From UHGV virus genome UHGV-0110025: DNA of 30,952 bases; one strand, given 5' to 3'. Positions within the stretch are counted from its first letter, which is position 1. The number at the start of each line of letters is the position of its first letter. Positions 1,100 through 21,168 of the stretch are shown piece by piece. The position numbers and the translations under genes are program-made. The notes below the pieces were generated by a model. That model searched no databases, was not told the origin of the DNA, and worked only from the letters and a program-made list of their open reading frames with translations. The stretch comes from a virus.

Positions 1100-1121
1100 A
1101 ATGTCACCGAGGCAACTCTTA

Positions 1122-1460
1122 TCATTCGCAAAGTGCTGTCGCAGCATCCATTACGGGATCCAAAGGAATTTTTACTCCTTCATAATCCGGGCTATCTTTC
1201 CAAACAGTATCAATATCGCTCCCCTCAAGCTTTCCAGACTTTACACCATCAATAGCAAACCCATTTAATGGGTATCGGTCATCTGTTGCTTTGTCGTACA
1301 CAAAGGCATATCTACCATTAACACAAGACACCGTAGCTTTTTCAAAAGTTAACGGCCAATCATCACCAAACTTAGCACCGTCTAAATCCTGTGTTTTTTC
1401 AGCGGCTGATGCACCGAAAGAAAGTGAAAGAAATAAAGCTAAAAAAAGCTTACGTTTCAT
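1122..1460 (-). CDS. Small exported protein with cleavable signal peptide (moron between cI and int)
   Basis: Start at ATG 1460 (MKRKLFLALFLSLSFGASA|AEK...), AAGGGA Shine-Dalgarno 4 nt upstream. N-terminal basic-hydrophobic-AxA signal peptide and two Cys in the mature part. Sits 8 nt after the cI stop and 22 nt before the int start, lower GC than neighbours. Confidence 0.6.
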   Translation of the reverse strand: MKRKLFLALFLSLSFGASAAEKTQDLDGAKFGDDWPLTFEKATVSCVNGRYAFVYDKATDDRYPLNGFAIDGVKSGKLEGSDIDTVWKDSPDYEGVKIPLDPVMDAATALCE

Positions 1461-1468
1461 AATGTCCC

Positions 1469-2305: not shown

Positions 2306-2425
2306 GTATCGCCACCAAAATTAATTTTCGCCATTGCAAAATTAAATTTCGCGAACTAAAGTGATGATTATCAACCACGATGCACATCAATGCAGTTCAC
2401 TACAAACAACAGGAGATAATGCGAT
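2306..2425. promoter_or_regulatory. Lysis/lysogeny switch region: divergent cI / early-lytic promoters and operators
   Basis: 120-bp intergenic region between divergent cI and the apl/cox-like gene. Candidate rightward promoter: -35 TTGCAA (2334-2339), 17-nt spacer, -10 TAAAGT (2357-2362). AGGAG Shine-Dalgarno at 2412-2416 precedes ATG 2426. Confidence 0.5.
2317..2352. repeat. Two direct-repeat candidate operator sites AAAATTAA(T/A)TTTCGC spaced 21 bp
   Basis: AAAATTAATTTTCGC at 2317-2331 and AAAATTAAATTTCGC at 2338-2352. The first contains a perfect 12-bp palindrome AAAATTAATTTT. The second overlaps the spacer of the candidate rightward promoter. Confidence 0.5.
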
Positions 2426-2797
2426 ATGTCAGATGCAAAATCAATCTCGACGCATGATTCGCAAAACTCACAAAATCAAACTGTGCTGTTAGATCCGGCT
2501 CAGTTTGATGCCATCGTTACCGCTATGCTGCCAGCTCTGCAGACAATGATCCGCTCCGCTATGTCAGACACAATGACAGTGAAAGACTTTGCCGCCACTC
2601 GCGGTGTAAGCGAGCGTCTGGTCTGGCAATGGCTTGATGAGGGAATCCTCCTCAAAGCTCCAACTAAAGACTTTTCCAACAAGGAAGAGGCTGGAAAACG
2701 AAGCCGCACCCTCGTAAACGTGAAAGCATGGCGCGACAAACTAACCCAGCAAGCGATTGATTGTCGCTACATCGACCACCGCATCGCTCTTAACTGA
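2426..2797 (+). CDS. Apl/Cox-like early regulator / excisionase candidate (HTH protein)
   Basis: First gene of the rightward early operon, divergent from cI, the position of 186 apl / P2 cox. Central HTH-like segment MTVKDFAATRGVSERLVWQWLDEG. Good SD. At 123 aa it is longer than Apl/Cox, so the N-terminus or identity is uncertain. Confidence 0.55.
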   Translation: MSDAKSISTHDSQNSQNQTVLLDPAQFDAIVTAMLPALQTMIRSAMSDTMTVKDFAATRGVSERLVWQWLDEGILLKAPTKDFSNKEEAGKRSRTLVNVKAWRDKLTQQAIDCRYIDHRIALN

Positions 2798-2829
2798 ATT
2801 TGATTATGCAAGTTAGAGGGAATTTAACC

Positions 2830-3339
2830 ATGTTTGATTTTCAGATTTCTAAACATCCTCACTATGACGAAGCGTGCCGGGCTTTTGCGCAGCGTCACAA
2901 CATGGCGAAGCTGGCCGAGCGTGCGGGTATGAACGTTCAAACGTTACGTAACAAGCTCAACCCAGAACAGCCTCACCAATTCACACCGCCTGAATTGTGG
3001 CTGCTGACTGACCTGACCGAAGACTCAACCCTCGTTGATGGCTTTCTGGCGCAAATACATTGTCTGCCATGCGTGCCGGTTAATGAGCTGGCTAAAGAGA
3101 AATTGCAGTCTTATGTGATGCGCGCAATGAGTGAACTCGGCGAACTGGCGAGCGGTGCGGTATCAAATGAACGTATGACCTCTGACCGCAAACACAGCAT
3201 GGTTGAGAGTGTTAATGCAGGCATCCGCATGTTGTCTCTGTCGGCGCTGGCGTTACAGGCGCGTCTACAGGCTAACCCGGCAATGTCGAGCGTGGTTGAT
3301 ACCATGACCGGCATCGGCGCAACATTTGGTTTGGTATGA
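2830..3339 (+). CDS. cII: CII-like lysogeny establishment regulator (186 CII family)
   Basis: MFDFQISKHPHYDEACRAFAQRHNMAKLAERAGMNVQTLRNKLNPEQPHQFTPPELWLLTDL... matches my recollection of the 186 CII family. Start placed at the internal Met (ATG 2830); the six-frame ORF begins at 2800. Confidence 0.8.
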   Translation: MFDFQISKHPHYDEACRAFAQRHNMAKLAERAGMNVQTLRNKLNPEQPHQFTPPELWLLTDLTEDSTLVDGFLAQIHCLPCVPVNELAKEKLQSYVMRAMSELGELASGAVSNERMTSDRKHSMVESVNAGIRMLSLSALALQARLQANPAMSSVVDTMTGIGATFGLV

Positions 3340-3346
3340 GGTGTTT

Positions 3347-3547
3347 ATGCTGAAAAATGAACCCTCATTCGCATCTCTGCTCGTTAAACAAAATCCAGGT
3401 ATGCATTACGGTCACGGCTGGATCGCGGGTAAAGATGGTAAGCGCTGGCACCCGTGCCGCTCTCAGTCTGATTTACTGGCTGGCCTCTCTACTCAAAAGC
3501 TGGGGGAATCATGGCTATCGAAGCTGTTTCCGCGACTATTCCGCTAA
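3347..3547 (+). CDS. fil: Fil-like small protein (phage 186 Fil family, cell-division inhibitor)
   Basis: MLKNEPSFASLLVKQNPGMHYGHGWIAGKDGKRWHPC... follows cII as in 186. Start ATG 3347 preceded by GAGGTG. Confidence 0.6.
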   Translation: MLKNEPSFASLLVKQNPGMHYGHGWIAGKDGKRWHPCRSQSDLLAGLSTQKLGESWLSKLFPRLFR

Positions 3548-3849
3548 AAGCGGGTGAACGTCTGGCCGGTCTCAATCATGTAGCTGAATTGCGCGCGAGA
3601 TATTGGGGCGATAGTTGGAAAGAGGTTGAGCGCTTTGTCGATGATATGCGCGATAAACGTGACTCTCAATTTGAAGAAAATAATCGGGCGCTGGCCGCTA
3701 TTTTCTTTCTGGCAAAAATACCGGCGGCTCGTCATGAGCTCGAATTAAGTGAGCTGACTACTGACGAGAAAAAAGCGCTTATTACAGCGATGAATCATTT
3801 TCGTGCAGTAGTGAGCTTATTTCCCAAACGGCTAACCATGCCGAATTAA
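3511..3849 (+). CDS. Hypothetical early-operon protein
   Basis: 112-aa ORF in the early operon between fil and the DUF2732-like gene. No motif I recognise. Overlaps the fil 3' end, so the start is uncertain. Confidence 0.45.
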   Translation: MAIEAVSATIPLKAGERLAGLNHVAELRARYWGDSWKEVERFVDDMRDKRDSQFEENNRALAAIFFLAKIPAARHELELSELTTDEKKALITAMNHFRAVVSLFPKRLTMPN

Positions 3850-3915
3850 CCAAAACAGAAATTAATGGCGTAAACCCGCCGGGCATTTTATTGCCCAAAA
3901 TCAGGAGAGTTAGTT

Positions 3916-4143
3916 ATGCGTAATACCGAACCCCGTAGTTTTAATACTGATAGTGACACGCTGGCCGTGCTGCTGACAGATGCAAAAAAAGAAGAACGCA
4001 AAGACCGCGCACTCGCCGTTTCAATCCGTCTTGAGGCGCTGGCTATCCATATCACTAAAGAGGGCATGAACGGCACCGAAGCCGCTGAACTGCTGCGCCG
4101 TGAGGCCACCCGCTACGAAAACGAATCACAGGAGCTGCACTAA
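3916..4143 (+). CDS. Small acidic early protein (DUF2732-like, P2-family)
   Basis: 75-aa ORF with strong SD (AGGAGAG) upstream. Composition and position resemble the small conserved ORFs preceding gene A in P2-like phages. Family assignment is from memory only. Confidence 0.5.
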   Translation: MRNTEPRSFNTDSDTLAVLLTDAKKEERKDRALAVSIRLEALAIHITKEGMNGTEAAELLRREATRYENESQELH

Positions 4144-4364
4144 TGGCCGACGCAATGGATTTAGCACAACTGCGCGAGCAGGAAGACCGCGAGCGCCACA
4201 TCAGCAACGCGCGCAGCCGTATAGCAGCGTCCTCTCCTTTCCTCTGCGAAGAATGTGACTCACCAATCCCGGAAGCTCGCCGTGCTGCAATTCAGGGGGT
4301 GGCATTTTGCGTGACTTGTCAGCAAATCGCAGAGCTAAAAAACAAACACTATCGGGGGGTATAA
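4143..4364 (+). CDS. TraR/DksA-family C4 zinc-finger protein
   Basis: Four Cys in a C-x2-C ... C-x2-C arrangement (CEECDSP...CVTCQQ) in a 73-aa protein. ATGA start/stop overlap with the upstream ORF. Confidence 0.7.
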   Translation: MADAMDLAQLREQEDRERHISNARSRIAASSPFLCEECDSPIPEARRAAIQGVAFCVTCQQIAELKNKHYRGV

Positions 4365-4365
4365 A

Positions 4366-6588
4366 TTGGCTGTTCAATTCGCTTATCCGTGGAATGCTCC
4401 ACGATCGGCTATAGCCAGCCCATACCTTACTTATAAGCAACAGCATCGCCGCGACCGTATGTTCGCGGCGATGCTGCATGCTAAAAAGGTGCTTTCTCTC
4501 CAGCCCGACTGCGTGCGGTTAGATGTTTATCGCACTGCGGCAGTGCTGGAGCAAAATCAGGGCATTCAACGAGCCAATGCCTTTTTGATCAGCTTCTGCA
4601 AAAAGGCATTGCCGCGTCTTGAATTGGTCGCAAAAAAATACGAATGCGCGGGTATCAACAGCAAGGTATCAACCTCTGTTTTTGGAAGTCATTTTGATAC
4701 CCAGCTTATGCAATATCTGGCGTCACGCATGGTTAATATGGTCGCCCGATATAACCGCCTCCCGGATATGTCGCGCGCTGATGTTGACCTGTTGGCCGCC
4801 GATATTGCTAATTTCATTCGTGGTGAACTTGCCAACATTAATGACCACGGATTCGGCGAGCTTAAAACGCTGTACACCTGGTATAATCGTGCTGGCTTTA
4901 TTTCCCTCCAGTTCAACGTTATCCCCCCCCATTGGGATCGGGTTGCAAAAAAATATGTTGGCGCGGATGAAATCGCACCGGCTATCGCCAAGATGTTTAA
5001 CGATGGGTGGTGGCGTGGTCGTTTGCGCCGGGTTGCAGCTACGTGGCGCGAACACCTGCAAATTGCAGTCGGCAACGTCAGCAAGAAAAAAAACACCTAT
5101 GCGAGTAAAAACTGCGTGACTGACTGGCGTGAACAAAAGCGCCGAACTCGTGAATTTCTCAAAGGTCTGGATCTCGAAGACGAAGACGGCAACCGTATCA
5201 GCCTGATTGAAAAATATGATGGCTCAGTTGCTAACCCTGCGATTCGCCGCTGTGAGCTCATGACTCGCATTCGTGGGTTTGAAAACATCTGTAATGAGCT
5301 CGGTTATGTCGGTGAGTTTTACACTCTGACCGCGCCGTCGAAATATCACGCCACGACTAAAGCCGGTTACCGTAACAGCAAATGGAGCGGTGCCTGCCCG
5401 GCTGACACGCAAAACTATCTAACTGATATCTGGGCGCGTATCCGTGCCAAACTGCATCGGGAAGATGTCCGTATTTTCGGTATTCGTGTCGCCGAGCCCC
5501 ATCACGACGGTACTCCACACTGGCACATGCTGATGTTCATGCTGCCGGAAGATGTTGAATATGTTCGCTCCATCGTCCGTAAATACGCGTGGAAAGAAGA
5601 CCGCCGCGAACTGAAAAGCGATAAGGCAAAAAAAGCACGTTTCCACGCCGAGTCCATTGACCCGGAGAAAGGCAGCGCAACCGGCTATGTTGCTAAATAC
5701 ATATCAAAAAATATCGACGGTTATGCTCTCGATGGTGAAACCGATAATGAAAGCGGTGAACTGCTGAAAGAGACAGCCCCCGCCGTTTCAGCATGGGCTT
5801 CGCGCTGGCACATCCGTCAGTTTCAGTTTATCGGTGGTGCGCCGGTGACGGTTTACCGTGAGTTGCGTCGCCTCGCTGATACCGAAACCGCGCACGGACT
5901 GAGCGTTGAGTTTGCCGCCGTCCATGATGCCGCCGACGCTGGTGACTGGGCTGGTTATGTTAATGCGCAGGGTGGACCGTTTGTCCGTCGCGATGATTTA
6001 CAGGTGCGCACACTGTATGAACCACGTACCGAGCTTAATCAGTACGGTGAGGAAACGGTATGTATTAAGGGGGTCTACGATTCCTCCATAGGTGCAGGTA
6101 GCCCGATTTTAACCCGGCTCACTCAGTGGAAGATTGTTCCGAAGCATGCTGTTGATTTGGCCGTTGACCTTCAGGACGGCAAAGCCGTCCCTCGGAGTTC
6201 TGTCAATAACTGTACGGGAAGTGAAAGCGATCCACCGATACTGGATTTAACAAAACCACAGAGTCGGCGCGAAAGACGAGAGCTGACCAACCGACTCAGG
6301 AAGCAAAAACCAGCAATACGGCGAAAATTCGTCCACGGAATGGATGAGCAAAACGCAGCTATAGCGAAAACTATCGACGAGATACATCTGACAACCAGCA
6401 TCACAATCAGCCGGGGCGAAGCCCTGCACCTGATGGCAGGTGGGAAAAGCTGTTTTGATGGCAAATGGCTAAGGGGAACATCCAAAGGGGAGATATTTTC
6501 CACTGTCCCATCGAACCAAGCTAAAGCTAGTAAAATCCTCAATCGTGTTGCAGCGTTGGTAGAAGCATCAAAGTTAATAGATGATTAA
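4366..6588 (+). CDS. A: Replication initiation endonuclease (P2 gpA family, rolling-circle HUH nickase)
   Basis: 740-aa ORF with a histidine-rich metal-binding region EPHHDGTPHWHMLMF and a downstream tyrosine motif GYVAKYISKN, typical of gpA initiators. Apparent TTG start at 4366 after a G-rich SD; an in-frame ATG lies at 4459. Confidence 0.9.
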   Translation: MAVQFAYPWNAPRSAIASPYLTYKQQHRRDRMFAAMLHAKKVLSLQPDCVRLDVYRTAAVLEQNQGIQRANAFLISFCKKALPRLELVAKKYECAGINSKVSTSVFGSHFDTQLMQYLASRMVNMVARYNRLPDMSRADVDLLAADIANFIRGELANINDHGFGELKTLYTWYNRAGFISLQFNVIPPHWDRVAKKYVGADEIAPAIAKMFNDGWWRGRLRRVAATWREHLQIAVGNVSKKKNTYASKNCVTDWREQKRRTREFLKGLDLEDEDGNRISLIEKYDGSVANPAIRRCELMTRIRGFENICNELGYVGEFYTLTAPSKYHATTKAGYRNSKWSGACPADTQNYLTDIWARIRAKLHREDVRIFGIRVAEPHHDGTPHWHMLMFMLPEDVEYVRSIVRKYAWKEDRRELKSDKAKKARFHAESIDPEKGSATGYVAKYISKNIDGYALDGETDNESGELLKETAPAVSAWASRWHIRQFQFIGGAPVTVYRELRRLADTETAHGLSVEFAAVHDAADAGDWAGYVNAQGGPFVRRDDLQVRTLYEPRTELNQYGEETVCIKGVYDSSIGAGSPILTRLTQWKIVPKHAVDLAVDLQDGKAVPRSSVNNCTGSESDPPILDLTKPQSRRERRELTNRLRKQKPAIRRKFVHGMDEQNAAIAKTIDEIHLTTSITISRGEALHLMAGGKSCFDGKWLRGTSKGEIFSTVPSNQAKASKILNRVAALVEASKLIDD

Positions 6589-6662
6589 TTTACATCCATA
6601 TCATGCACATACAATACCTGCATGATTCACTTTTTCTCTTCCCATCATTTGCTAATACGTGA

Positions 6663-6682
6663 TACTGTACAAATATACAGTT
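6663..6682. promoter_or_regulatory. LexA (SOS) box TACTGTACAAATATACAGTT
   Basis: CTGT-N8-ACAG with an AT-rich spacer, close to the E. coli LexA consensus TACTGTATATATATACAGTA. Lies about 20 bp upstream of the ATG at 6703, with a candidate -35 TTGCTA at 6649-6654. Confidence 0.7.
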
Positions 6683-6702
6683 ATCATATTGGGAGGGATT
6701 TC

Positions 6703-6888
6703 ATGGTTGGGGAACATTTCAGCCGAACGCAGCAAAAGTGGGCTTGTGTGCAATTCATTGCCGAGATATCTCTGGTTGCAAACTGCAAGCCAGCAGACTT
6801 AAAGCTTGCGCTTACTCTCATTGCTGATCTGGCAAACAGCGAAAACAACGAAGAACCAGAAAATGAAGTCTTTTATAAGGCTGAATAG
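6703..6888 (+). CDS. Small SOS-controlled protein, candidate Tum-like antirepressor
   Basis: 61-aa ORF with SD GGGAGGGA (6691-6698), immediately downstream of the LexA box. It is downstream of gene A, where 186 carries the LexA-regulated tum gene. The protein has an acidic C-terminus; sequence identity to Tum is not verified. Confidence 0.45.
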   Translation: MVGEHFSRTQQKWACVQFIAEISLVANCKPADLKLALTLIADLANSENNEEPENEVFYKAE

Positions 6889-6891
6889 GTT

Positions 6892-7026
6892 ATGAAAATT
6901 AATCTCACATTGGATAAGAAACAAAAACTAGGCCGACCGGTTATTGATGCCTTTCAATGCGAATTGACCAAGAGGACACTGTCTATTTTTCCGTCAACAT
7001 GTGGTGCCGTCAAGAGAGCACTATGA
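6892..7026 (+). CDS. Small basic hypothetical ORF (44 aa)
   Basis: MKINLTLDKKQKLGRPVIDAFQCELTKRTLSIFPSTCGAVKRAL. Starts 3 nt after the stop of the Tum-like ORF, in the same frame. Below the 60-aa cutoff of the supplied track; translated by hand. Confidence 0.3.
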   Translation: MKINLTLDKKQKLGRPVIDAFQCELTKRTLSIFPSTCGAVKRAL

Positions 7027-7148
7027 GTGGTGCTGAGTTGATGGAGTTTGATATAGATTCAGATCGCGAGGCGCTTGATGGTATTCTCCAAGAAATCTGG
7101 GAAGACGAGCAGTTGGCGGTAGTTAATGACAGAATGTGCAGACCATAA
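7023..7148 (+). CDS. Small acidic hypothetical ORF (41 aa)
   Basis: MSGAELMEFDIDSDREALDGILQEIWEDEQLAVVNDRMCRP. Its ATG overlaps the TGA of the preceding 44-aa ORF (ATGA), suggesting translational coupling. Confidence 0.35.
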   Translation: MSGAELMEFDIDSDREALDGILQEIWEDEQLAVVNDRMCRP

Positions 7149-7193
7149 CCCTATGTCTAGTTGCACGGAGGTTAGAAAAAATGCTGTCCGAAT

Positions 7194-7214
7194 TAGCCCT
7201 CTCTCAGAGGGCTA
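7194..7214 (+). terminator. Perfect 9-bp-stem hairpin TAGCCCTCT-CTC-AGAGGGCTA
   Basis: Inverted repeat read from the sequence, downstream of the small-ORF cluster and upstream of the 7347 operon. A T-run (tgctgttttt) follows only after about 15 nt, so intrinsic-terminator function is uncertain. Confidence 0.35.
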
Positions 7215-7271
7215 TGAATTAAAAATGCTGTTTTTGATATGTTAACCTCTTAACAGTTTCATCTTTAAATC

Positions 7272-7299
7272 TTGTAAAGTAAAACTTTGCGTTTATGAT
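7272..7299 (+). promoter_or_regulatory. Candidate sigma70 promoter for the 7347-8947 operon
   Basis: -35 TTGTAA (7272-7277), 16-nt spacer, -10 TATGAT (7294-7299), in an AT-rich intergenic region. AAGGAG Shine-Dalgarno at 7333-7338 precedes ATG 7347. Confidence 0.35.
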
Positions 7300-7346
7300 T
7301 GATAAAAATTAAAAAAGTATGAAGAGGCTGTAAAGGAGTTTTATCA

Positions 7347-7862
7347 ATGCCTGGATTCCAAAATGCACAGCAAAATCAATTTGATGATCATGCTCCAGAA
7401 ATGGAGATAAACTTAATCGTAGATGTTGCTGAGCAGCCCGTAGCCTTTACCTATCAATATAGTGAGCAAATTAGCCACCTTGCACCGCAATGTCCGCCAG
7501 CAGAAGCGATTGAATGTGACAAAGAATGCTGGCGCTTCACTCTCAATCCGATAACGGACAGTTGCTTTTGGCCTCCAAAAAGAAGGGTTCCTGAGAGGGT
7601 TGCCTCAGACAGTCAGCAGGAGTGCTCTATGTGGGCGTTGTCTATGTATGAATCAGAGCGACAAGCTGTAGTCGCTTATTCTGGGCTTTCTAAGTCAGTG
7701 AGAAATATTAAGAAAACAATTGGAGATCACCTTGCAAGAGGCACGGTAGCTTGTGGTGATGGTAGATGTATGCCTCCAAATAGAAAAGGCCATTTTGACT
7801 TTCATCCATATTTAGATACTGAGTTCCCTGATGGCTTTCAGGTAATAAGAGCATTACCATGA
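7347..7862 (+). CDS. Hypothetical Cys-rich protein, gene 1 of an accessory two-gene operon
   Basis: 171-aa ORF with strong SD, AT-rich codon usage unlike the phage backbone, several Cys pairs (CPPAEAIECDKEC ... CGDGRC). No motif I recognise. Stop overlaps the next start (ATGA at 7859-7862). Confidence 0.6.
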   Translation: MPGFQNAQQNQFDDHAPEMEINLIVDVAEQPVAFTYQYSEQISHLAPQCPPAEAIECDKECWRFTLNPITDSCFWPPKRRVPERVASDSQQECSMWALSMYESERQAVVAYSGLSKSVRNIKKTIGDHLARGTVACGDGRCMPPNRKGHFDFHPYLDTEFPDGFQVIRALP

Positions 7863-8947
7863 TAAAATTAGATGCTAAAAGAATCACTGCACCGGAGGTC
7901 GGAGATTACTCGTGGTATTCTGACTTGGTGTATTTTGATGGACCACTGATTTGTTTATTTCGAGGAAGTGGCTATAAGGATGCTCTTTATGTTTGGCTTG
8001 ATAATTCAACCAGAGCCAACCGCTGGTGTTTAATACCTGTATCAAGGTCAACTTTAGATTCCTATCTTAATCAAAGAATGAGTCTAAGAGAAATCATACA
8101 ATCAAACGAATATGTTTATATTTGCAATCACTTTGCAGAAACAGGACGAAAAAATTATAGCCGTCTGAGCGTAGATGATTTCCCTGAGGAATATATGCCT
8201 GATGCTGACTCATATTTATATGAAGAAATATGCACCGATGACGCACTATTGTTAAAGCAAGAACGCACATCTAGCTATATGCTAGGACTGGACAACCAGT
8301 TGTTTATAAATGATTTATCAGAAATTCCAAAAATTTTCGAACAATTGTATTCTTTCCACTATGGACTTGCCCACTTGGGCAGAATTTCCATTAGAAATAC
8401 CATGCTGCGATTGATGGGTAGTTGGACTGGTGGATTCTCAGCAGTAAATATTTTCACTGGTTTAAAGAATGTCATTCCTGTCCTGCACCGCCCAGAAGTT
8501 AGCTCACTTCAATATAACTCCCCCGGACATATTGAATTGAACTTGCTTCCTGACTTGGCGCAGAGCGTTCAGGATGTATCTGTTCGTGTTGAAAATGAAT
8601 TTATTTATGACCGTTTAGAGAAAATCTATAAAAACAATTACACATACTTTAAAGATAAAGATCTATCAGGTTTTGATGAGGGTGGAGGAATTGAGTTAAG
8701 GAACATCGACTCTGAAACCACAGAAAATCTTCGTAAGCGTGTTAGAATTTTCTTTAGGTGTTTAGGTTGGAAAACCTATCAAGCGCAGTTTGATATGATC
8801 GGTGCCCATCCCTTGCAGCAGTTACGCGCAGTTATGGCGTATTACAGACGCCTGAAAACATTACGAGAATATATTGTGGCAGATAAATTATTCATTGGTC
8901 ATTCGCGAGTGCCGGTAGAGCAAATTACTGTGAATACTGAAAATTAG
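7859..8947 (+). CDS. Hypothetical protein, gene 2 of an accessory two-gene operon
   Basis: 362-aa ORF translationally coupled to the upstream gene, AT-rich. No P-loop, HExxH, HIT or other motif recognised. Located between gene A and cos. Confidence 0.65.
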   Translation: MIKLDAKRITAPEVGDYSWYSDLVYFDGPLICLFRGSGYKDALYVWLDNSTRANRWCLIPVSRSTLDSYLNQRMSLREIIQSNEYVYICNHFAETGRKNYSRLSVDDFPEEYMPDADSYLYEEICTDDALLLKQERTSSYMLGLDNQLFINDLSEIPKIFEQLYSFHYGLAHLGRISIRNTMLRLMGSWTGGFSAVNIFTGLKNVIPVLHRPEVSSLQYNSPGHIELNLLPDLAQSVQDVSVRVENEFIYDRLEKIYKNNYTYFKDKDLSGFDEGGGIELRNIDSETTENLRKRVRIFFRCLGWKTYQAQFDMIGAHPLQQLRAVMAYYRRLKTLREYIVADKLFIGHSRVPVEQITVNTEN

Positions 8948-9073
8948 CTTTCTGCATGAGGATGCGTGAATCTGCATTATTTATTAATTCAACCCATAGA
9001 TACTGTAGGACGCAATAGGCATGGGCTTGAGACCAAAATGCAACTGCATTAAAACCGCCCCATTAAGCGGGTA

Positions 9074-9092
9074 GGCGTGGCGGGGAAAGCAT
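9074..9092. other. cos: cos site (19-nt cohesive end) GGCGTGGCGGGGAAAGCAT
   Basis: Differs at two positions from the P2 cohesive end as I recall it (GGCGAGGCGGGGAAAGCAC). Lies in a GC-rich non-coding stretch between the A-side accessory genes and portal gene Q, where cos sits in an integrated P2-type prophage. Confidence 0.7.
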
Positions 9093-9311
9093 TGCGCGCC
9101 AGCAGTGATGCGTAATAATAAAAATTATCCTCTGAGCGCGTCGTGATGGCGCTGTCGTGGTCGCTGCTGGTTCGTTGGTGGTCGGGTGTGTTCGTGCGCG
9201 TGAGACGCATCTGATGCGTGATGGTGGTGTGCATGGAAAAGCCACCAGGAGCAGCGGCTTTACAGGAGTGGCAGGATTCAAACTGCTAATTATGTTTCTA
9301 CTATGATTAAA

Positions 9312-10316
9312 CTAATTTACATGTATGTAGAGTTCACCGTCGCCAGACCAATCGGGACACTCTAAAACAAGCCCAAACTGCTTGAATATTTCATCAATGA
9401 TTATTGTTATCTCCCGAAAATCACCAAAACCTGTAATGTGCTGGTCATTAAACTTCCCATAAAGATTCTGAAAAGCAATGCCTAATTCTGATAATTGATA
9501 TCTTATCTTTGAGTTGGATAGTGTAAGGGATAGCTTTGGATCGTATTCTTTAATATTGATGTTTAGAGAATGGACATAACCCATCGCATAAGCATAAGAG
9601 TTGATGATTAGCCTGATACGTTTTTTTACTTCGAGATACATGTCATTCAGAGAAATATTACCGTACTTATAACCCCAGATGAGTTTTTCAATCTCGTCAG
9701 ATACTTCATTTACAACAGTGTCAAGATTCTCTAAAAATAAATCAATAGTTTCTTGAGGGGCAGACCCCGAAGACATGTAATTAGCGAGATATTCAGACCA
9801 TGCACGCGTGGCTGAGATAAGAAGCGCGCTACCATACTCGTTGACTGTAAAATTTTGGGCTAAGCATGTTAGTAAGTTTTTTTCATGTACGTGCACTAAT
9901 TCATGGTGAATGCGATGGATGACTGCGAGGTATCCTTCTTCTTTCAGTTTTAAGAAGCTACCATCATTGAAAAGCTCAACAAAAAAATCAATCGATAGCA
10001 CAAGGGTATATTCTTCACATAGCCCATCATTGCCAATTTTTGTTACTAACTGCCCGACGGCTGCGCCCTGTTTGCTATTGGTAAATGAACTAGGGGATTT
10101 GTGTTGGTAAGAGGATGTTACCTTTTGAAGAGCTTCACTGAAGTTATAGGAAACAATCACGCATTTTAATTTGGAGATATCAAGATTGAGATTTTTTGTT
10201 AAAGCTCGGATAGCTTCTAGTGTGAAATTACCGATATTATTTGCTTCTTGCTCAGTAGCGAAACCTTCGAGGGTTATTTTAAAATCAGTTTCCAAAATAT
10301 TAATCTCCGCGCCCAT
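9312..10316 (-). CDS. Hypothetical protein with HExxH zinc-metallopeptidase-like motif
   Basis: 334-aa ORF, AT-rich, containing IHRIHHELVHVHEKN (HELVH = HExxH, with a second HE just downstream). Inserted between cos and Q. No strong SD at ATG 10316. Confidence 0.65.
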   Translation of the reverse strand: MGAEINILETDFKITLEGFATEQEANNIGNFTLEAIRALTKNLNLDISKLKCVIVSYNFSEALQKVTSSYQHKSPSSFTNSKQGAAVGQLVTKIGNDGLCEEYTLVLSIDFFVELFNDGSFLKLKEEGYLAVIHRIHHELVHVHEKNLLTCLAQNFTVNEYGSALLISATRAWSEYLANYMSSGSAPQETIDLFLENLDTVVNEVSDEIEKLIWGYKYGNISLNDMYLEVKKRIRLIINSYAYAMGYVHSLNINIKEYDPKLSLTLSNSKIRYQLSELGIAFQNLYGKFNDQHITGFGDFREITIIIDEIFKQFGLVLECPDWSGDGELYIHVN

Positions 10317-10393
10317 TGTTTTGATATTCGATGCACTATAGCTTTCGCAGATTGCATCTTCAATAATGAGCGCAGAGATTGTGGCGGCCTAAG

Positions 10394-11440
10394 TTATTCT
10401 GGGTTGTCGAGGGTGTACTCTTTGAACCTGATGACCTCCATACCGAGCCAGTCGTTTACCTCCCTGAACCTATCCTGCAGGGGTGACAGCTCATTACGCA
10501 CAAATACCTTTGCCACCTTCTCAACGTCACCGAGTGAACCGATATTCTCGGGCTTGCCGCCCATGAGCTGGAACGGTACGCGGTGCGCGTCCATCAGATC
10601 GGCGGCACTGGCCTTCTTGATGTTGAAAAAGTCATCCTTTGTGGCGACCTCGCTCAGTGGCACGATTTTGATGCCGTCCGGTTTTCCGCCGGGAGCGTAG
10701 AAAAACAGGTTCTTAAAGTTGCCGAGCCCTTTTGAGTTGCGCATCGCCTCGCGCAGCGATTCGACGTCGGTCGCGCTCTGCGCCGGGTCAGTCACATACA
10801 TGATGTAACCCGCGTGCGCGCCGTTCTGATAATACTTGCGGCGGAACAGCGTCGCGGATTCATTCAGCCAGGCGGAATTTAGCGCGCTGAGATATTCGGG
10901 CAGGCCGTAAATCTCCTGATTAATGTCGGGCTCCAGCAGGTGAAACACGGTATCAGGCGCGAACTCGTGCGGCTGGGTGAAGTTTTCCACAAACCAGAAA
11001 ATCGAATCGTCGACTCCGCGTCGGGTGTATTTGGCTGGCGAGGCCAGCAGTTTGATTAACTGGCCGGTGACGCTGTGGCGCTGCTCAAGAAAGGCGTTAC
11101 CGAACACCAGATAATCGAGCGCAAAGCGGCTGAAATCCTGACGGGATAACAACGGGTGCGGAATGTAGGTGCTCGCGAGCACGTTACGCTTAACATAAAT
11201 TGGCGAGCTGTGATGCACGGCAGAGCGCAGGCTCTTTGCCAGCCCTGAGAAGCTGACCGGCGGCTCGTACCATTTGCCGTTACTGATGCACTCGACGTAA
11301 TCCAGAATGTCGCGCTTATCGAGTACCGGCACCGGCTCGCCGAAGGTGAACGCTGTCGTTTTTGGCGGTGCGCTGGCGGTCAGTTGTTGTGGTTTGCTGG
11401 CCTTTTGTGCGTTGGCTTTACGGGATTTTTGTTTACCCAT
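10394..11440 (-). CDS. Q: Portal protein (P2 gpQ family)
   Basis: 348-aa ORF on the minus strand immediately upstream of terminase P, the P2 Q-P arrangement next to cos. N-terminal basic region and overall length fit gpQ. Confidence 0.9.
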   Translation of the reverse strand: MGKQKSRKANAQKASKPQQLTASAPPKTTAFTFGEPVPVLDKRDILDYVECISNGKWYEPPVSFSGLAKSLRSAVHHSSPIYVKRNVLASTYIPHPLLSRQDFSRFALDYLVFGNAFLEQRHSVTGQLIKLLASPAKYTRRGVDDSIFWFVENFTQPHEFAPDTVFHLLEPDINQEIYGLPEYLSALNSAWLNESATLFRRKYYQNGAHAGYIMYVTDPAQSATDVESLREAMRNSKGLGNFKNLFFYAPGGKPDGIKIVPLSEVATKDDFFNIKKASAADLMDAHRVPFQLMGGKPENIGSLGDVEKVAKVFVRNELSPLQDRFREVNDWLGMEVIRFKEYTLDNPE

Positions 11441-18274: not shown

Positions 18275-18704
18275 CGCCGTGCCGCAGCTCCGAAATAATC
18301 CCGATATGCTGCGCCTTTTTGCCGACAACGGCCATACCGATTCCCGACTGGCGAGCTCGCTGTCGTTTGAAAAGGTGTACGTGCTTAACGTGGTGGTTAC
18401 CGACTTCACCGGTGACCTTGATTTGATATTCGTGCCGGTGCAGGCGTGGCTGCGTGAACATCAGCCGGACATTATGACCACCGACGACGGGCGGGAAAAA
18501 AGATTCACCTGGATTATTGATATCAATAACGACGATTCGCTCGATATCAGTATCAGCCTGAGGCTCACCGAGCGCACGCTCGTCAAAGAGGTCGACGGCG
18601 CGCTGCACGTCAGCTATGCCCCTGAGCCGCCACTGCCTGAGCCGGTGACGCGCCCGGTCGAGCTGTACGTTAACGGCGAACTGGTGAGTAAGTGGGATGA
18701 GTGA
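18237..18704 (+). CDS. R: Tail completion protein R (P2 gpR family)
   Basis: Start at ATG 18237 (MQKHKSLRKAL...) with AGGA 8 nt upstream; the six-frame ORF begins at 18228. Confidence 0.8.
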   Translation: MQKHKSLRKALINAVPQLRNNPDMLRLFADNGHTDSRLASSLSFEKVYVLNVVVTDFTGDLDLIFVPVQAWLREHQPDIMTTDDGREKRFTWIIDINNDDSLDISISLRLTERTLVKEVDGALHVSYAPEPPLPEPVTRPVELYVNGELVSKWDE

Positions 18705-19143
18705 ATTAACCGCGCTGCAGGAACGCCTTGCCGGTCTGATTGCCAGCCTGTCACCGGCGGCACGTCGGCAAATGGCGGCTGAGATTGCGAAAAAGCTGCG
18801 TACCAGTCAGCAACAGCGTATCAAGCGCCAGCAGGCACCCGACGGCACCCCGTATGCGGCACGAAAGCGCCAGCCGGTGCGGAGCAAGAAAGGTCGGATT
18901 AAACGTGAAATGTTCGCCAAACTGCGCACCAGTCGCTTTATGAAAGCCAAAGGCAGCGACAGTGCGGCGGTGGTGGAGTTTACCGGCAAGGTGCAGCGCA
19001 TGGCGCGGGTTCATCAGTACGGCCTCAAAGACCGGCCAAACCGTAACAGCCGGGATGTGCAGTACGAGGCGCGCCCGTTGCTCGGTTTCAATAGTATAGA
19101 TATGAGAATTATTGAGCGGTTAATAATTGGGGCTTTGGATTAA
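18697..19143 (+). CDS. S: Tail completion / virion morphogenesis protein S (P2 gpS family)
   Basis: 148-aa ORF overlapping the R stop, last gene of the capsid-lysis late operon. Confidence 0.8.
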   Translation: MSELTALQERLAGLIASLSPAARRQMAAEIAKKLRTSQQQRIKRQQAPDGTPYAARKRQPVRSKKGRIKREMFAKLRTSRFMKAKGSDSAAVVEFTGKVQRMARVHQYGLKDRPNRNSRDVQYEARPLLGFNSIDMRIIERLIIGALD

Positions 19144-19171
19144 TTATGATCTAATATATTATTTTGTGATG

Positions 19172-19200
19172 AGGCTGGATAAACACCAGCCTTGATTTTA
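19172..19200 (+). terminator. Rho-independent terminator after gene S
   Basis: Perfect 7-bp stem AGGCTGG / CCAGCCT with a 7-nt loop (19172-19192) followed by TGATTTTAT. Sits between the convergent S and HIT-like gene 3' ends. Confidence 0.45.
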
Positions 19201-19842
19201 TAGTTTGAAATCTGCGTAATTATCAATAACCTCTAGAACACCGCTGATATTGTTATCTCTGCGCCAATTCCAATTGCCATGTATCAAATTTGCATTAGAA
19301 TAAAGATATCTAAGGAACTGAGATGGTAAGAGTGGTTTGTTGCATAAAAATTCATCATAACTATTACTCATATACCACACATATCCATTTTTAATGTCAA
19401 AACTTAAATTCTCACCTTCAATTTTCTTAAAGTTAATTTCTTTATTTAGAGCATTTTCAAACTCTTGTGTATAATAAACACAGTGTATATGAGCGTGAGA
19501 AATGCACCCTCCTGAACGATCTATATTTTCACCTGCTCCGCTTTCAAAGAAAATTAGAGATCTACCAGATTGGTGGATTATAAATTCATTAAGTTCTCGC
19601 AGAATCTCCTTGCCATTACTCCGGGTATCTCGATCAAGAGCAGCAAAGGAGTTGATATGCCGCTTAGGAATCAGCATCACATGCGAATTATTTAGCGGGC
19701 CAATACTAGGTACAATTAGAAAATCATTTGTTTCTGCAATGATATTTTTCTTGTCATTTACGATTTCATCGTATCCTTTGATAAGGCTAATGCCATTTAT
19801 TTCATCGCATATTCCACAGAACGAATTACAAGAATTATTCAC
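19198..19842 (-). CDS. HIT (histidine-triad) superfamily nucleotide hydrolase/transferase-like protein with C-terminal extension
   Basis: N-terminal CNSFCGIC, then FLIVPSIGPLNNSHVMLIPKRHI and the histidine triad SGGCISHAHIHCV, matching the Hint/HIT pattern (C-x-F-C ... H-x-L-V-I-P-K-x-H-I ... H-x-H-x-H). About 90 aa follow the triad. Apparent GTG start; AT-rich island. Confidence 0.75.
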   Translation of the reverse strand: MNNSCNSFCGICDEINGISLIKGYDEIVNDKKNIIAETNDFLIVPSIGPLNNSHVMLIPKRHINSFAALDRDTRSNGKEILRELNEFIIHQSGRSLIFFESGAGENIDRSGGCISHAHIHCVYYTQEFENALNKEINFKKIEGENLSFDIKNGYVWYMSNSYDEFLCNKPLLPSQFLRYLYSNANLIHGNWNWRRDNNISGVLEVIDNYADFKL

Positions 19843-20356
19843 GTTTATTGTCTCCTGGTTTTTTAGGGAGCAATTTTTCAGCCCAAGATGCGAGTCGGCT
19901 TAGAACTAAGTCTGAAAAATATCCTAATATAAAACAAATCGAGAATGCAATTTTGGTCTTACCATGCCCTTTAATGGAGGATACAAACGTATCCGGAGAT
20001 AATATCGTATAAGAACAAAAAGCCACTAAAGCAGCTAAGAACGGAATAAAAATCCTCCAGTAGAACTTATGGGATTCCCAAGGAAAATTATACTGATTGT
20101 TTTTCCCTCTAGCAGTTACTCTATAAAACCATTTTGCATTATACACCCACCCTCCAAAAAAACCGCCAAGAATAGAAAACAAAGATATTTTATTATTATA
20201 TGACAGCTCAAAAACAAATTGGAAAAGAAAGGCGAGAATGCAACCTATTACAAAAAGAACTATTAAATAAGCAAATTCGAATTTTATTTGTTCACAATCG
20301 TTATTAAAATAAGGCACAACCTCATCATCGCCTAAGGTTTTTTTTCTTTCAGTCAT
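19835..20356 (-). CDS. Multi-pass membrane protein, upstream partner of the HIT-like gene
   Basis: About four hydrophobic helices (FAYLIVLFVIGCILAFLFQFVF, ISLFSILGGFFGGWVY, IFIPFLAALVAFCSYTIL, IAFSICFILGYFSDLVL). Its stop overlaps the HIT-like start by 8 nt. Start taken at ATG 20356 (SD GAAGGTG 8 nt upstream); the six-frame ORF extends to 20407 (TTG), with another ATG at 20401. Confidence 0.6.
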   Translation of the reverse strand: MTERKKTLGDDEVVPYFNNDCEQIKFEFAYLIVLFVIGCILAFLFQFVFELSYNNKISLFSILGGFFGGWVYNAKWFYRVTARGKNNQYNFPWESHKFYWRIFIPFLAALVAFCSYTILSPDTFVSSIKGHGKTKIAFSICFILGYFSDLVLSRLASWAEKLLPKKPGDNKRE

Positions 20357-20532
20357 TTGCCAAACACCTTCATTTTTTACTGTGAGCCAGGGTAATTGCA
20401 TATTCAACTTGGCTATTCTAATTAATTCTCACAAGATTTCATAGATGTTGAGTAGACCTCTCAGAAGTTGTTTCATTCCTCACAGAATCCATCTCGATTG
20501 CCACTAATCTTGCCGGGCGTCATCCTTCCCAT

Positions 20533-21168
20533 ATGAAAAATCTAAATTCTTTGCAAGAAATCGCACGCGCGATCCGAAATCTCATCCGTACCGGCATCGT
20601 TAGCGACGTAGACCTCAAGGAGGGGCTATGTCGTATCCAGACCGGGGGGATGCAAACCACTTGGCTGAACTGGCTGACCACCCGAGCCGGTCGTTCGCGG
20701 ACGTGGTGGGCTCCCTCGGTCGGTGAGCAGGTTCTGCTGCTGGCAATCGGTGGCGAGCTTGATACCGCTTTCGTGCTGCCGGGTATTTTCTCCGACGATA
20801 ACCCCGCCCCGTCTGCCTCGGCGGATGCGTGGCATGTGGCTTTCCCTGATGGTGCGGTCATTGAGTACGAGCCCGAAACCGGCGCGCTGACGGTCAGCGG
20901 CATAAAAACGGCCGACGTGACGGCATCGGAGTCCATCACCGCAACCGTACCGCTGGTACTGGTGAAAGCCTCGACCAGTATCACCCTCGACACCCCGGAG
21001 GTGATTTGCACCAATAAGCTAACGACGGCGACGCTTGAGGTGCAGAAAGGCGGCAAGATGAGCGGCAATATCGAACATACCGGCGGGTCACTGTCGTCTA
21101 ATGGCAAGGTACTCCACACCCATAAACACCCGGGCGACAGCGGCGGGCAAACGGGGGCACCGTTATGA
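20533..21168 (+). CDS. V: Baseplate assembly protein V / spike (P2 gpV family)
   Basis: 211-aa ORF, first gene of the baseplate/fibre operon, with a Gly-rich C-terminus (HTHKHPGDSGGQTGAP). Confidence 0.85.
   Translation: MKNLNSLQEIARAIRNLIRTGIVSDVDLKEGLCRIQTGGMQTTWLNWLTTRAGRSRTWWAPSVGEQVLLLAIGGELDTAFVLPGIFSDDNPAPSASADAWHVAFPDGAVIEYEPETGALTVSGIKTADVTASESITATVPLVLVKASTSITLDTPEVICTNKLTTATLEVQKGGKMSGNIEHTGGSLSSNGKVLHTHKHPGDSGGQTGAPL

Follow-up and report, generated by a model that had tools for sequence, protein, structure and literature searches.

The window analyzed here, a stretch of 30,952 nucleotides from virus genome UHGV-0110025, carries a two-gene cassette encoding a membrane protein and a histidine-triad (HIT) protein between the P2 genes S and V. 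This cassette is a horizontally mobile unit that moves among cargo and immunity positions in mobile elements without relationship to each other. In our main reading, to which we assign a probability of about 0.5, it would be a self-contained mobile module that is carried as cargo to the benefit of the lysogen and functions in anti-phage defence, abortive infection or superinfection exclusion. We consider it a credible new and uncatalogued candidate for such a defence or exclusion function.

The S-V slot and its cargo

The cassette (34% GC) stood out clearly in base composition, with GC values of 0.30-0.39 over positions 19150-20500 compared to 0.53-0.64 (about 0.58) in the flanks. The first-pass annotation had described two overlapping minus-strand genes in an AT-rich island bounded by a terminator on one side and the V promoter region on the other, and this layout was borne out (Table 1). 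In an E. coli prophage of 99.7% identity, the left boundary gene carries the annotation phage virion morphogenesis protein, and gpV is annotated on the other side. The terminator-like hairpin is positioned between the convergent S and HIT genes, 3' of S as the last gene of the late operon, and the P2 annotation places a rho-independent O-operon terminator at the equivalent position as well as the pV activator site and the V start on the opposite side of the slot. The right edge of the island is approximate and corresponds to the point where homology to the empty S-V junctions restarts. The -35/-10 pair upstream of the membrane gene could possibly give the cassette a promoter of its own, separate from those of the late operons; since the promoter-like and terminator-like sites scanned in this region were not more numerous than expected from shuffling, expression in the lysogen is an assumption. 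An Rfam scan of the island gave no match. The sole repeat flanking the island, a 14-nt inverted repeat of 86% (19103-19116 and 20418-20431), probably arose by chance.

Table 1. Features of the S-V region in the window
Feature	Position	Strand	Basis
gpS (tail completion/virion morphogenesis), left boundary of the slot	18697..19143	+	ORF; annotation of a 99.7% identical prophage; P2 S at same position
AT-rich acquired island, ~1.3 kb, in the P2 "orf30" slot	19144..20460		GC; comparison with empty junctions; alignment to P2
G+C-rich hairpin followed by T-run, likely late-operon terminator	19170..19194	+	Terminator-like site; P2 equivalent
Predicted two-domain HIT enzyme, 214 aa, GTG start	19198..19842	-	ORF
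8-nt overlap of membrane-gene stop and HIT start (GTGAATAA)	19835..19842	-	Sequence
Membrane protein, 173 aa from ATG 20356 (most likely start)	19835..20356	-	ORF; RefSeq start; alignment of 55 homologues; AlphaFold2; hydropathy and K/R distribution
Alternative membrane-protein ORF, 190 aa from TTG	19835-20407	-	ORF
Sigma-70-like -35/-10 (ATGAAA-16-TAGAAT), putative cassette promoter	20415..20442	-	Consensus scan, 9/12 matches
gpV promoter region	~20460-20532		P2 pV activator site and V start at equivalent place; alignment
gpV (baseplate assembly/spike), right boundary of the slot	20533..21168	+	ORF; annotation; P2 pV activator site; alignment

The orf30 slot between S and V is one of three recognized horizontally acquired regions in P2-like phages (PMC3091744). 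Among the S-V junctions of 80 related phages, 60 were empty and measured 71-72 bp, while the other 20 were filled by inserts of 0.9-1.5 kb with a GC of 0.32-0.38 that comprised at least 11 different gene sets, most of them in antisense orientation. The HIT/membrane allele was found at two of the 80 junctions surveyed. Other cargos matched PD-T4-7 and FRG/PDC-S15 genes, and a UPF0489-domain cargo present in three loci (L085, L039 and L048) had, with 261 aa, the same size as P2 Orf30. The cassette shares the identical slot, the antisense orientation and the low GC with P2 Orf30 and the other S-V cargos but is unrelated to P2 Orf30 in sequence and consists of two genes instead of a single 261-aa gene. 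The "prophage moron slot" proposed at first can thus be specified as the P2 orf30 region, which is mostly empty in relatives and otherwise filled by unrelated AT-rich cargos, and the cassette has the hallmarks of accessory cargo: its GC is low, it lies between pV and the terminator of S, and in relatives this position is usually empty or else taken by unrelated genes.

The HIT protein, its membrane partner and their coupling

The Pfam profiles for HIT (23.4 bits, cut-off 21.5), DcpS_C (28.5, cut-off 24) and CwfJ_C_1 (28.4, cut-off 21) all scored above their cut-offs and identified the downstream gene product as a true HIT-superfamily protein. Its alpha+beta fold is that of HIT proteins, the HIT model matched all 54 homologues, and the protein profile recovered Hint-type HITs from the PDB (E 1.6e-5). 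The complete histidine-triad signature claimed in the first-pass annotation proved near-universal among these homologues: SHVMLIPKRH (H54, H62) and HAHIHCV (H116, H118, H120) were invariant in the 54 sequences, and the positions C9/C12 (a zinc-type CxxC), H54, H62 and H116-A-H118-I-H120 were invariant or nearly so. We predict a nucleotidyl hydrolase/transferase type enzyme with an intact catalytic triad.

Closer examination of the domain structure revealed that the C-terminal stretch of ~90 aa, regarded earlier as an extension, forms a second domain with strong conservation (GYVW, LPSQFLRYLY, WNWRR), which follows the N-terminal HIT/CwfJ_C_1 domain bearing the CxxC, SHVMLIPKRH and HAHIHCV motifs. 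CwfJ_C_1 (PF04677) exceeded its gathering score in the window protein and matched 54/54 homologues at E <= 1 (best E 6e-9). The two-domain fold is held in common with solved CWF19 proteins, and the whole HIT protein resembles the CwfJ/CWF19 type of two-domain HIT, a relationship missed at first. This likeness of the C-terminal domain is one of fold only. In the Pfam scan, CwfJ_C_2 (PF04676) matched none of 54 full-length members and none of 30 isolated C-domains, and a C-domain profile retrieved no CWF19 chain, nor any other chain, from the PDB sequences; sequence homology to CwfJ_C_2 was therefore rejected. Derivation of the C-domain from a degenerate second HIT half, as in a GalT-like internal repeat, was likewise discarded because an hhalign comparison of the N-half and C-half profiles gave no signal. 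The viral fold library BFVD contained only single-domain HITs of actinophages and giant viruses as matches (E about 1e-3). The HIT protein is acidic and has just three conserved basic residues.

For the membrane gene, the start is most likely ATG 20356 (173 aa) and not the TTG 20407 (190 aa) of the first-pass annotation. The RefSeq call, the N-termini of homologues, a GAAGGTG motif 8 nt upstream and the location of the promoter-like -35/-10 pair all favour this choice. The approximately four transmembrane helices claimed earlier were recovered as four long helices in an AlphaFold2 model (pLDDT 78). In the hydropathy profile, two membrane helices were strong and two, Gly-rich, were moderate. 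Alignment of 55 homologues showed an invariant cytoplasmic loop (KWFYRVTARGK...HKFYWR), which is basic, K/R-rich and situated between helices 2 and 3, as well as a GYFSD motif. With a pI of 9.1 for the small inner-membrane protein and 5.5 for the cytoplasmic HIT protein, the two partners carry complementary charges.

The two genes were also found to be strictly paired in other genomes. In loci from Escherichia, Enterobacter, Pantoea, Halomonas, Pseudomonas, Burkholderia, Vibrio and metagenomic sources, the order was constant, with the membrane gene first and the HIT gene second wherever upstream sequence was present. Thirteen distinct loci were compared: the cassette was lower in GC than its flanks in all of them, and in 12 its genes overlapped by 4-14 nt. 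The 8-nt overlap in the window together with an AGGAG motif 9 nt upstream of the HIT start implies translational coupling. Each gene has more than 100 homologous clusters, with families of similar size that have contigs in common, and pN (0.075-0.23) was well below pS (0.69-0.85) for both, indicating purifying selection; neither is thus a chance ORF. In every locus compared, the membrane protein was better conserved (about 42-87% identity) than the HIT protein (32-75%). One protein (P0261) joined the C-terminal half of the membrane protein to the HIT module, with the membrane-protein profile at residues 34-111 (E 3e-13) directly followed by the HIT module at 118-325. As the single such fusion in the database, and one that is truncated at its N-terminus, it may have arisen artificially through misassembly or a frameshift.

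Distribution and comparison with known systems

The cassette is rare. Of 5426 complete E. coli genomes, 8 carried it, in all cases at least 99.4% identical, and a contig scan of about 100,000 species-representative genomes found it in one of them, at one locus. No DNA or protein match was obtained among 50,697 GenBank phage records, and plasmids yielded nothing beyond one weak Rhizobium match. The gpA-portal hotspot of P2-like phages, a documented defence reservoir (PMC9122126; 2026 preprint), also houses the same cassette (L015; L112-114). In temperate phages of Pseudomonas the cassette adjoins the CI/S24 repressor, in a Vibrio filamentous prophage it lies beside an ADP-ribosyltransferase-like gene, and in Halomonas it directly follows a Mks/Wadjet-like operon. 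A decayed P2 remnant has kept it, along with an AAA_15/21+HNH pair. The chromosomal contexts in Pseudomonas sp. 9AZ, Burkholderia and two further loci (L106 and L107) were free of recognizable defence neighbours. Placement in a P2 defence hotspot and next to repressors, defence-type neighbours, and the PD-T4-7 and PDC-S15 matches of the alternative S-V cargos all lend support to the defence or exclusion reading, even though guilt by association in hotspots is imperfect since P2 hotspots hold toxins and other cargo as well.

PADLOC-DB 2.0, which includes Kiwa, Thoeris, the PD-T4/T7/lambda systems and PDC candidates, did not match either protein at E <= 1, while PD-T4-10 was readily detected elsewhere in the window with the same library. 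Text searches of the literature, among it the Rousset 2022 study, the 2026 P2/P4 preprint and recent discovery and survey papers, turned up neither a HIT plus membrane protein system nor the accessions or PHROG ids. The initial impression that the pair is not a named system has therefore stood.

The exclusion pair RexAB of phage lambda, which is encoded beside CI and expressed from the prophage, consists of a cytoplasmic protein and an inner-membrane protein with four helices. The cassette likewise combines a cytoplasmic with a four-helix membrane protein and, in temperate phages of Pseudomonas, sits directly beside a CI-type repressor. In contrast, no sequence relationship was detected (no PADLOC match), RexA is not a HIT enzyme, and the gene order differs. 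A pair of HAD hydrolase and transmembrane protein from P4/P2 hotspots has been validated against T7, and abortive infection with a membrane effector was proposed for it (PMC9122126). This system (Rousset et al. 2022) is similar to ours in that two genes in a P2/P4 variable hotspot encode a small phospho-hydrolase-type enzyme and a membrane protein, but the enzymes have HAD and HIT folds, respectively, the membrane proteins are unrelated, and the T7 validation belongs to the HAD system alone. ThsC, the accessory HIT protein of Thoeris type II (PADLOC classification, PMC8565338), is another HIT-domain protein tied to an anti-phage system. The window protein differs from it in the lack of a PADLOC match at E <= 1 and of ThsA/ThsB neighbours, and it is of the two-domain CwfJ type with a membrane partner.

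A close structural parallel is the C-terminal module of the CWF19/Drn1 proteins, which are associated with the eukaryotic spliceosome (CwfJ_C_1 plus CwfJ_C_2; CWF19L1, CWF19L2 and S. pombe Cwf19), of which the window protein matches CwfJ_C_1 above cut-off. The key residues of Drn1 are a CxxC, two His residues 8 apart, HxH and then an Arg and a Trp 15 apart (PMC4105757), and the window HIT protein has counterparts at the same spacing (C9/C12, H54/H62, H116/H118 and R178/W193). Unlike the CWF19 proteins, it is a stand-alone bacterial/phage protein of 214 aa without an N-terminal Dbr1-like, zinc-finger or RRM region, retains the full HxHxH triad, is coupled to a membrane protein, and has a C-domain without a CwfJ_C_2 sequence match. 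CWF19L2 clamps the lariat junction by a positively charged surface (PMC6461851), whereas the window protein is acidic with three conserved basic residues, which calls for caution in ascribing branched (lariat) RNA binding to the bacterial protein.

Proposed function and alternative explanations

In the defence or exclusion reading, the cassette would be transcribed in the lysogen from its own promoter, antisense to the late operons, and the two proteins would assemble on the cytoplasmic side of the membrane, where the HIT protein may bind its partner at two places, the C-terminal tail and the invariant K/R-rich loop that separates helices 2 and 3. Upon infection, the HIT enzyme would act on an NMP-X substrate, either a phosphoanhydride or a phosphoramidate, by way of a nucleotidyl-histidine intermediate at H118. 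Candidate substrates are dinucleoside polyphosphates, nucleic-acid ends that are nucleotide-capped or 5'-adenylylated, and nucleotide signals. This catalytic event would be coupled to the membrane protein. The version that we prefer is RexAB-like: catalysis by the HIT protein, the more variable of the two, would provide the sensor or switch, and the better conserved membrane protein would be the effector that compromises membrane integrity. Alternatively, the membrane protein might position or trigger the HIT protein where DNA enters the cell, and the HIT protein itself would be the effector. Further points in favour of the defence or exclusion reading are the strict pairing, the fusion protein, the purifying selection, the complementary charges, the higher conservation of the membrane protein, the gene neighbours of distant two-domain HIT relatives and the precedent of the HAD system. 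The assignment of sensor and effector is what we infer for the two partners; because no informative structural relative of the membrane protein was found and it is an orphan in this respect, its effector role is conjecture. A more specific possibility, which we regard as a long shot, is that the HIT protein would be a catalytically intact bacterial counterpart of the CwfJ module of CWF19/Drn1 that acts on nucleic acid and not on a free nucleotide, recognizing 2'-5' branched or 5'-nucleotidylated RNA or DNA arising from infection (lariat-like, retron-like or with a capped/adenylylated end) and coupling this recognition to a membrane effector.

Among the other explanations, a lysogenic-conversion or metabolic module of the envelope appears doubtful. 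The HIT protein would be a nucleotidyl transferase or hydrolase of the GalT, Apa or CDP-diacylglycerol pyrophosphatase kind whose substrate is a lipid or sugar activated by a nucleotide. The membrane protein would provide an anchor or a substrate channel, and the resulting change in surface or membrane composition could itself block adsorption or injection. A toxin-antitoxin or addiction module, which we consider unlikely, would have the membrane protein as a membrane-damaging toxin that is neutralized by the co-translated HIT protein, stabilizing the carrier element without a dedicated anti-phage role. The small, overlapping and translationally coupled genes, the isolated two-gene islands in chromosomes, the mobility among elements and the retention in a decayed prophage fit this explanation, but an antitoxin would need no invariant catalytic triad, zinc site or conserved second domain, and the placement in a defence hotspot and next to repressors fits defence equally. 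The distinction is not a sharp one, since many pairs of this kind are in fact abortive-infection systems and the explanation thus overlaps with the main reading.

Counter-defence, with the HIT protein degrading immune signalling nucleotides or alarmones of the host for the benefit of the phage, is very unlikely. Even though HIT enzymes cleave dinucleoside polyphosphates and NMP conjugates, Nudix hydrolase fusions occur among related two-domain HITs and the cassette is phage-borne, such a role leaves the obligate membrane partner unexplained. The cassette moreover occurs in chromosomal islands outside phages and next to defence operons of the host, is absent from all of the GenBank phage records, and its location antisense to late genes and apart from the early operon, or adjacent to a repressor, fits expression in the prophage state. 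An ordinary housekeeping HIT protein (Hint- or Ap4A-hydrolase-like) that happens to lie in a prophage is effectively ruled out by the distribution in 8 complete E. coli genomes and one species representative. In all cases the gene exceeds its flanks in AT content and has the membrane gene as its partner, and scores for the NCBIfam housekeeping models were far below their cut-offs despite labels such as "Ap4A HIT family hydrolase" or "ATP adenylyltransferase" for homologues in some sources.

An exhaustive profile search revealed more than 2,000 clusters (50% identity) of similar two-domain HIT proteins of ~200-240 aa, which makes the window an entry point to a large uncharacterized bacterial family. 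Some of these relatives are fused to Nudix or SAM-methyltransferase domains, and both fusions were confirmed; extra domains considered MazG-like (P0309, P0344 and P0384) or deoxyribosyltransferase-like (P0320) had no PDB sequence matches. Distant two-domain HIT relatives share an operon with genes for a 2-TM and a SIR2 protein, and TIR and PDC-S26 genes lie nearby. The identification of a 363-aa partner of one distant relative (L103) as a PRTase fusion was unsupported by Pfam.

If the cassette protects against phages, it would represent a new immune enzyme chemistry, that of a CwfJ-type two-domain HIT protein, together with a new family of small membrane proteins, and the little-studied S-V (orf30) slot would become a third reservoir of defence genes in P2-like phages that is exchangeable with the gpA-portal hotspot. 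The structural link to CWF19/Drn1 offers an evolutionary and mechanistic lead on binding and catalysis by a poorly understood spliceosomal module. Should the HIT protein indeed be a bacterial counterpart of the CwfJ module, the cassette would belong to a previously unknown class of membrane-coupled immune systems, which would suggest that a eukaryotic cofactor of splicing and debranching descended from an enzyme of prokaryotic conflict systems.

Structure of the operon and its two products

The cassette located between the tail genes S and V of this P2-like prophage is a strict translationally coupled operon. Its products are an inner-membrane protein, which is basic and has four helices, and an acidic HIT enzyme of two domains whose zinc-type CxxC and catalytic triad are intact. 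As described in the first-pass annotation, two overlapping minus-strand genes form an AT-rich island between S and V, which the ORFs, the flanking genes and a sharp drop in GC content (0.30-0.39 vs 0.53-0.64 on either side) all confirmed. The GTG start of the HIT gene overlaps the membrane-gene stop by 8 nt (GTGAATAA) and has AGGAG 9 nt upstream. Since it is the RefSeq call and fits the N-termini of homologues, ATG 20356 (173 aa, with GAAGGTG ahead of it) is more probably the start of the membrane gene than TTG 20407. In E. coli, RefSeq names the two genes "HIT family protein" and "hypothetical protein".

A terminator and the V promoter region had also been proposed to flank the island. The equivalent slot of phage P2 contains an annotated O-operon terminator, the non-essential antisense orf30 and a V-promoter activator site, and a hairpin with a T-run was located 3' of S. 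The promoter and terminator scans of this region did not exceed shuffle expectation, so these calls are consistent with a P2-type arrangement rather than proof of it. A 14-nt inverted repeat (86% complementary) brackets the island and coincides with its edges, probably by chance.

Features of the window and of compared loci (L numbers)
Feature	Coordinates	Strand	Remarks
PD-T4-10_A match	7347-7862	+	gpA-portal hotspot; full length, E 6.5e-69
PD-T4-10_B match	7859-8947	+	overlaps the preceding gene; full length, E 3e-169
Hotspot cargo gene	9312-10316	-	334 aa; adjoins PD-T4-10, just upstream of portal gene
gpS	18697-19143		left neighbour of cassette
Low-GC island	19144 to ~20460
Inverted repeat	19103-19116 and 20418-20431
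Hairpin with T-run	19170-19194		3' of S; scan
HIT gene	19198-19842	-	214 aa; ORF
Membrane gene, longest ORF	19835-20407	-	190 aa from TTG
-35/-10-like pair	20442-20415		upstream of membrane gene; scan
gpV	20533-21168		right neighbour of cassette
Filled S-V junctions (L024-L027, L038, L039, L048, L073, L076, L079, L081-L083, L085-L088, L098)	about 5448-6930 or equivalent locus coordinates
Vibrio filamentous prophage (L010, also L011)	7132-10642
Three-gene operon (L103, same in L104)	4917-9260
Divergent locus (L106)	6001-7874
Enterobacter sp. FB remnant (L111)	1023-8247

The HIT protein, like essentially all 54 homologues, scored above the curated Pfam cut-offs for CwfJ_C_1, DcpS_C and HIT, and the family profile matched Hint-type HIT structures in the PDB (E 1.6e-5). 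The complete histidine-triad signature reported earlier was corroborated: C9 and C12 (CxxC), PSxGPL, H54 and H62 (SHVMLIPKRH), FFESGAG, as well as G111, C113, H116, A117, H118 and H120 (HAHIH) are invariant or near-invariant. The same applies to GYVW, N168, P170, LPSQFLRYLY and WNWRR in the last 90 residues, so that the stretch described earlier as a C-terminal extension is in fact a conserved domain. With a pI of 5.5 (family median 6.4), the protein is acidic, and just three of its basic residues are conserved.

The membrane protein matched no curated family. PHROGs contains a full-length family for each of the two proteins (phrog_22917 and phrog_23000), both of unknown function. The prediction of about four transmembrane helices was upheld by an AlphaFold2 model with four long helices (pLDDT 78) and by hydropathy, which revealed two strongly and two moderately hydrophobic, Gly-rich segments; a fold search returned nothing informative. 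The helix 2-3 loop (KWFYRVTARGKNNQY..W..HKFYWR) is its most conserved part. With six K/R in this loop and five in the C-tail, the positive-inside rule predicts an N-in/C-in topology that places the invariant loop in the cytoplasm.

Pairing, genomic sites and rarity

Each family comprises about 90-135 clusters at 90% identity, many of them on common contigs. The two genes consistently co-occur: the membrane gene lies directly upstream of the HIT gene in every locus with upstream DNA present, spanning Escherichia, Enterobacter, Pantoea, Halomonas, Pseudomonas, Burkholderia, Vibrio and metagenomic sequences, and this order is kept down to 42% and 32% identity. Among 13 distinct loci, 12 exhibited a stop/start overlap of 4-14 nt and all had a pair GC below that of the flanks. 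Both genes are under purifying selection (pN 0.075-0.23 vs saturated pS 0.69-0.85). In one N-terminally truncated representative protein, P0261, the C-terminal half of the membrane protein (profile match at P0261 residues 34-111, E 3e-13) is joined to the HIT module (P0261 residues 118-325). This fusion could be a frameshift artefact; as a Rosetta-stone case it hints at joint action of the pair, the enzyme lying on the cytoplasmic side. In the divergent locus L106, a Cytidylate_kin2 (P-loop NMP-kinase-like) gene follows 3 nt after the pair; in that lineage the module may have three components.

The view of the S-V junction as an insertion slot held up among 80 IMG/VR phages with a close gpS. 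While 60 junctions were empty (71-72 bp), 20 carried inserts of 0.9-1.5 kb with a GC content of 0.32-0.38. These comprise no fewer than 11 unrelated gene sets, almost all of them antisense; the HIT/TM allele occupied only two junctions. Other alleles include a PD-T4-7-like gene (E 1e-10) and an FRG-domain PDC-S15 gene (E 7e-38), both matched by PADLOC, TM plus a pentapeptide-repeat protein, and a UPF0489-domain protein equal in size to P2 Orf30. Further cargos were a TM plus 140-aa pair, an amidase-like plus lipoprotein pair and several proteins without family. The orf30 region counts among the three regions of P2-like phages that are recognised as horizontally acquired (PMC3091744), and the slot appears to be a third, little-explored cargo hotspot.

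The cassette moves among unrelated elements, in which it occupies cargo and immunity sites. It was present in the gpA-portal hotspot of other P2-like phages (L015 and Pantoea loci), a documented defence reservoir (PMC9122126; 2026 preprint), next to the S24-peptidase CI repressor in Pseudomonas temperate phages with a lambda-like terminase, and after a Mks/Wadjet-like operon in Halomonas. In a Vibrio filamentous (Rep_trans/Zot) prophage the pair is cargo at the prophage end, neighboured by an ADP-ribosyltransferase-exoenzyme-like gene (Pfam E 5.7e-7) and a 347-aa unknown gene. The decayed P2 remnant of Enterobacter sp. FB contains V-W-J-I, a tail-fibre fragment, Ogr, a Cox-S fusion ORF and an integrase and keeps the pair together with an AAA_15/AAA_21 plus HNH_5 gene pair, which suggests that cargo was kept after phage functions were lost. 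Elsewhere the cassette is an isolated two-gene island among housekeeping genes. It is rare, with eight occurrences in 5426 complete E. coli genomes (99.4-99.7% identical, same place in a P2-like prophage), one in about 100,000 species-representative genomes by the patterns used, one weak plasmid match and none by DNA or protein in 50,697 GenBank phage records.

Known systems and proposed function

Consistent with the earlier statement that the cassette is not a named system, no PADLOC 2.0 model matched either protein, although the library does recognise PD-T4-10 in the same window. Besides the cassette, the prophage thus bears a known defence system of two genes, located in its main hotspot; the adjoining 334-aa gene had no PADLOC match and no Pfam match above threshold. 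No HIT+TM system turned up in text searches of the literature, in the supplements of P2/P4 hotspot studies or in recent large-scale discovery papers. The only HIT in a defence context in the searched literature was ThsC of Thoeris type II, to which the cassette HIT protein gives no match. The cassette would resemble known prophage enzyme+TM modules in its mode of action, yet it falls into none of them.

The suggested role in defence, abortive infection or superinfection exclusion draws on good contextual and comparative evidence and is, in our assessment, partly supported; we give the defence or exclusion reading a probability of about 0.5. Under such a scheme, a lysogen would express the cassette from its own promoter, both proteins would form a complex at the cytoplasmic membrane face, and catalysis via H118-NMP on an NMP-X substrate would be coupled to a membrane event during infection. 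In 13 of 13 distinct loci compared, the membrane protein shows higher conservation than the enzyme, and the membrane partners of known enzyme+TM systems are presumed effectors (PMC9122126). On these grounds we favour an abortive or exclusion mechanism of the RexAB type, in which the HIT protein would serve as catalytic sensor or switch and its membrane partner as effector. The roles might be reversed, the membrane protein serving as sensor or anchor at the DNA-entry site and the enzyme as effector. Rival explanations of the conserved pair are a TA/addiction module, an envelope-modifying conversion module and a counter-defence enzyme. A housekeeping HIT is effectively excluded by the distribution.

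The wider HIT family and its resemblance to CWF19 and Drn1

An exhaustive profile search of 1.84 billion representative proteins yielded 2,081 matches at E <= 1e-10, of which 49 reached E <= 1e-30. Of the 150 best, nearly all were 200-245 aa in length and aligned across the whole profile, which identifies the two-domain HIT architecture as a large uncharacterised bacterial family, of which the TM-paired clade is a small top tier. Members with unusual architectures (database proteins P0262, P0291, P0309, P0320, P0321, P0344, P0356 and P0384) were observed, and the family includes fusions to Nudix (PDB MutT and Ap4A hydrolases, E 2.6e-10) and SAM methyltransferase (E 2e-9) domains as well as a tandem duplication. 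The Nudix fusions point to nucleotides or nucleotide-capped molecules as substrates. Two other extra domains were also present, one of ~110 aa that is shared ('LVRDKIPxII') and one of ~170 aa at the C-terminus.

Distant members (25-31% identity) occur in defence-type neighbourhoods. In L103, one such HIT (30% identity) is part of an apparent three-gene operon, following a 363-aa protein with two N-terminal membrane helices (8-nt overlap) and preceding an 845-aa LmuA/ThsA-like SIR2_2 protein (E 4e-20), with TIR_2, LytTR and TnpV genes close by; this may be a separate candidate system. Another adjoins a PDDEXK_4 gene matching PDC-S26.

Yeast Drn1 requires C269/C272, H311/H319, H366/H368, R459 and W474 (PMC4105757), which are matched with the same spacing by C9/C12, H54/H62 (8 apart), H116/H118 and R178/W193 (15 apart) of the HIT protein. 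No sequence method linked the family's C-domain to CwfJ_C_2 or any PDB chain, and no internal repeat was detectable in the HIT protein. Moreover, the lariat-junction clamp of CWF19L2 is a positively charged surface (PMC6461851), whereas the HIT protein is acidic with few conserved basic residues. We therefore place it among two-domain HITs of the CwfJ_C_1 type, with a CWF19-like fold, and make no claim of branched-RNA binding. A reading in which a bacterial CwfJ enzyme, coupled to a membrane effector, targets branched or nucleotidylated nucleic acids seems quite improbable; if true, it would have implications for the origin of CWF19/Drn1.
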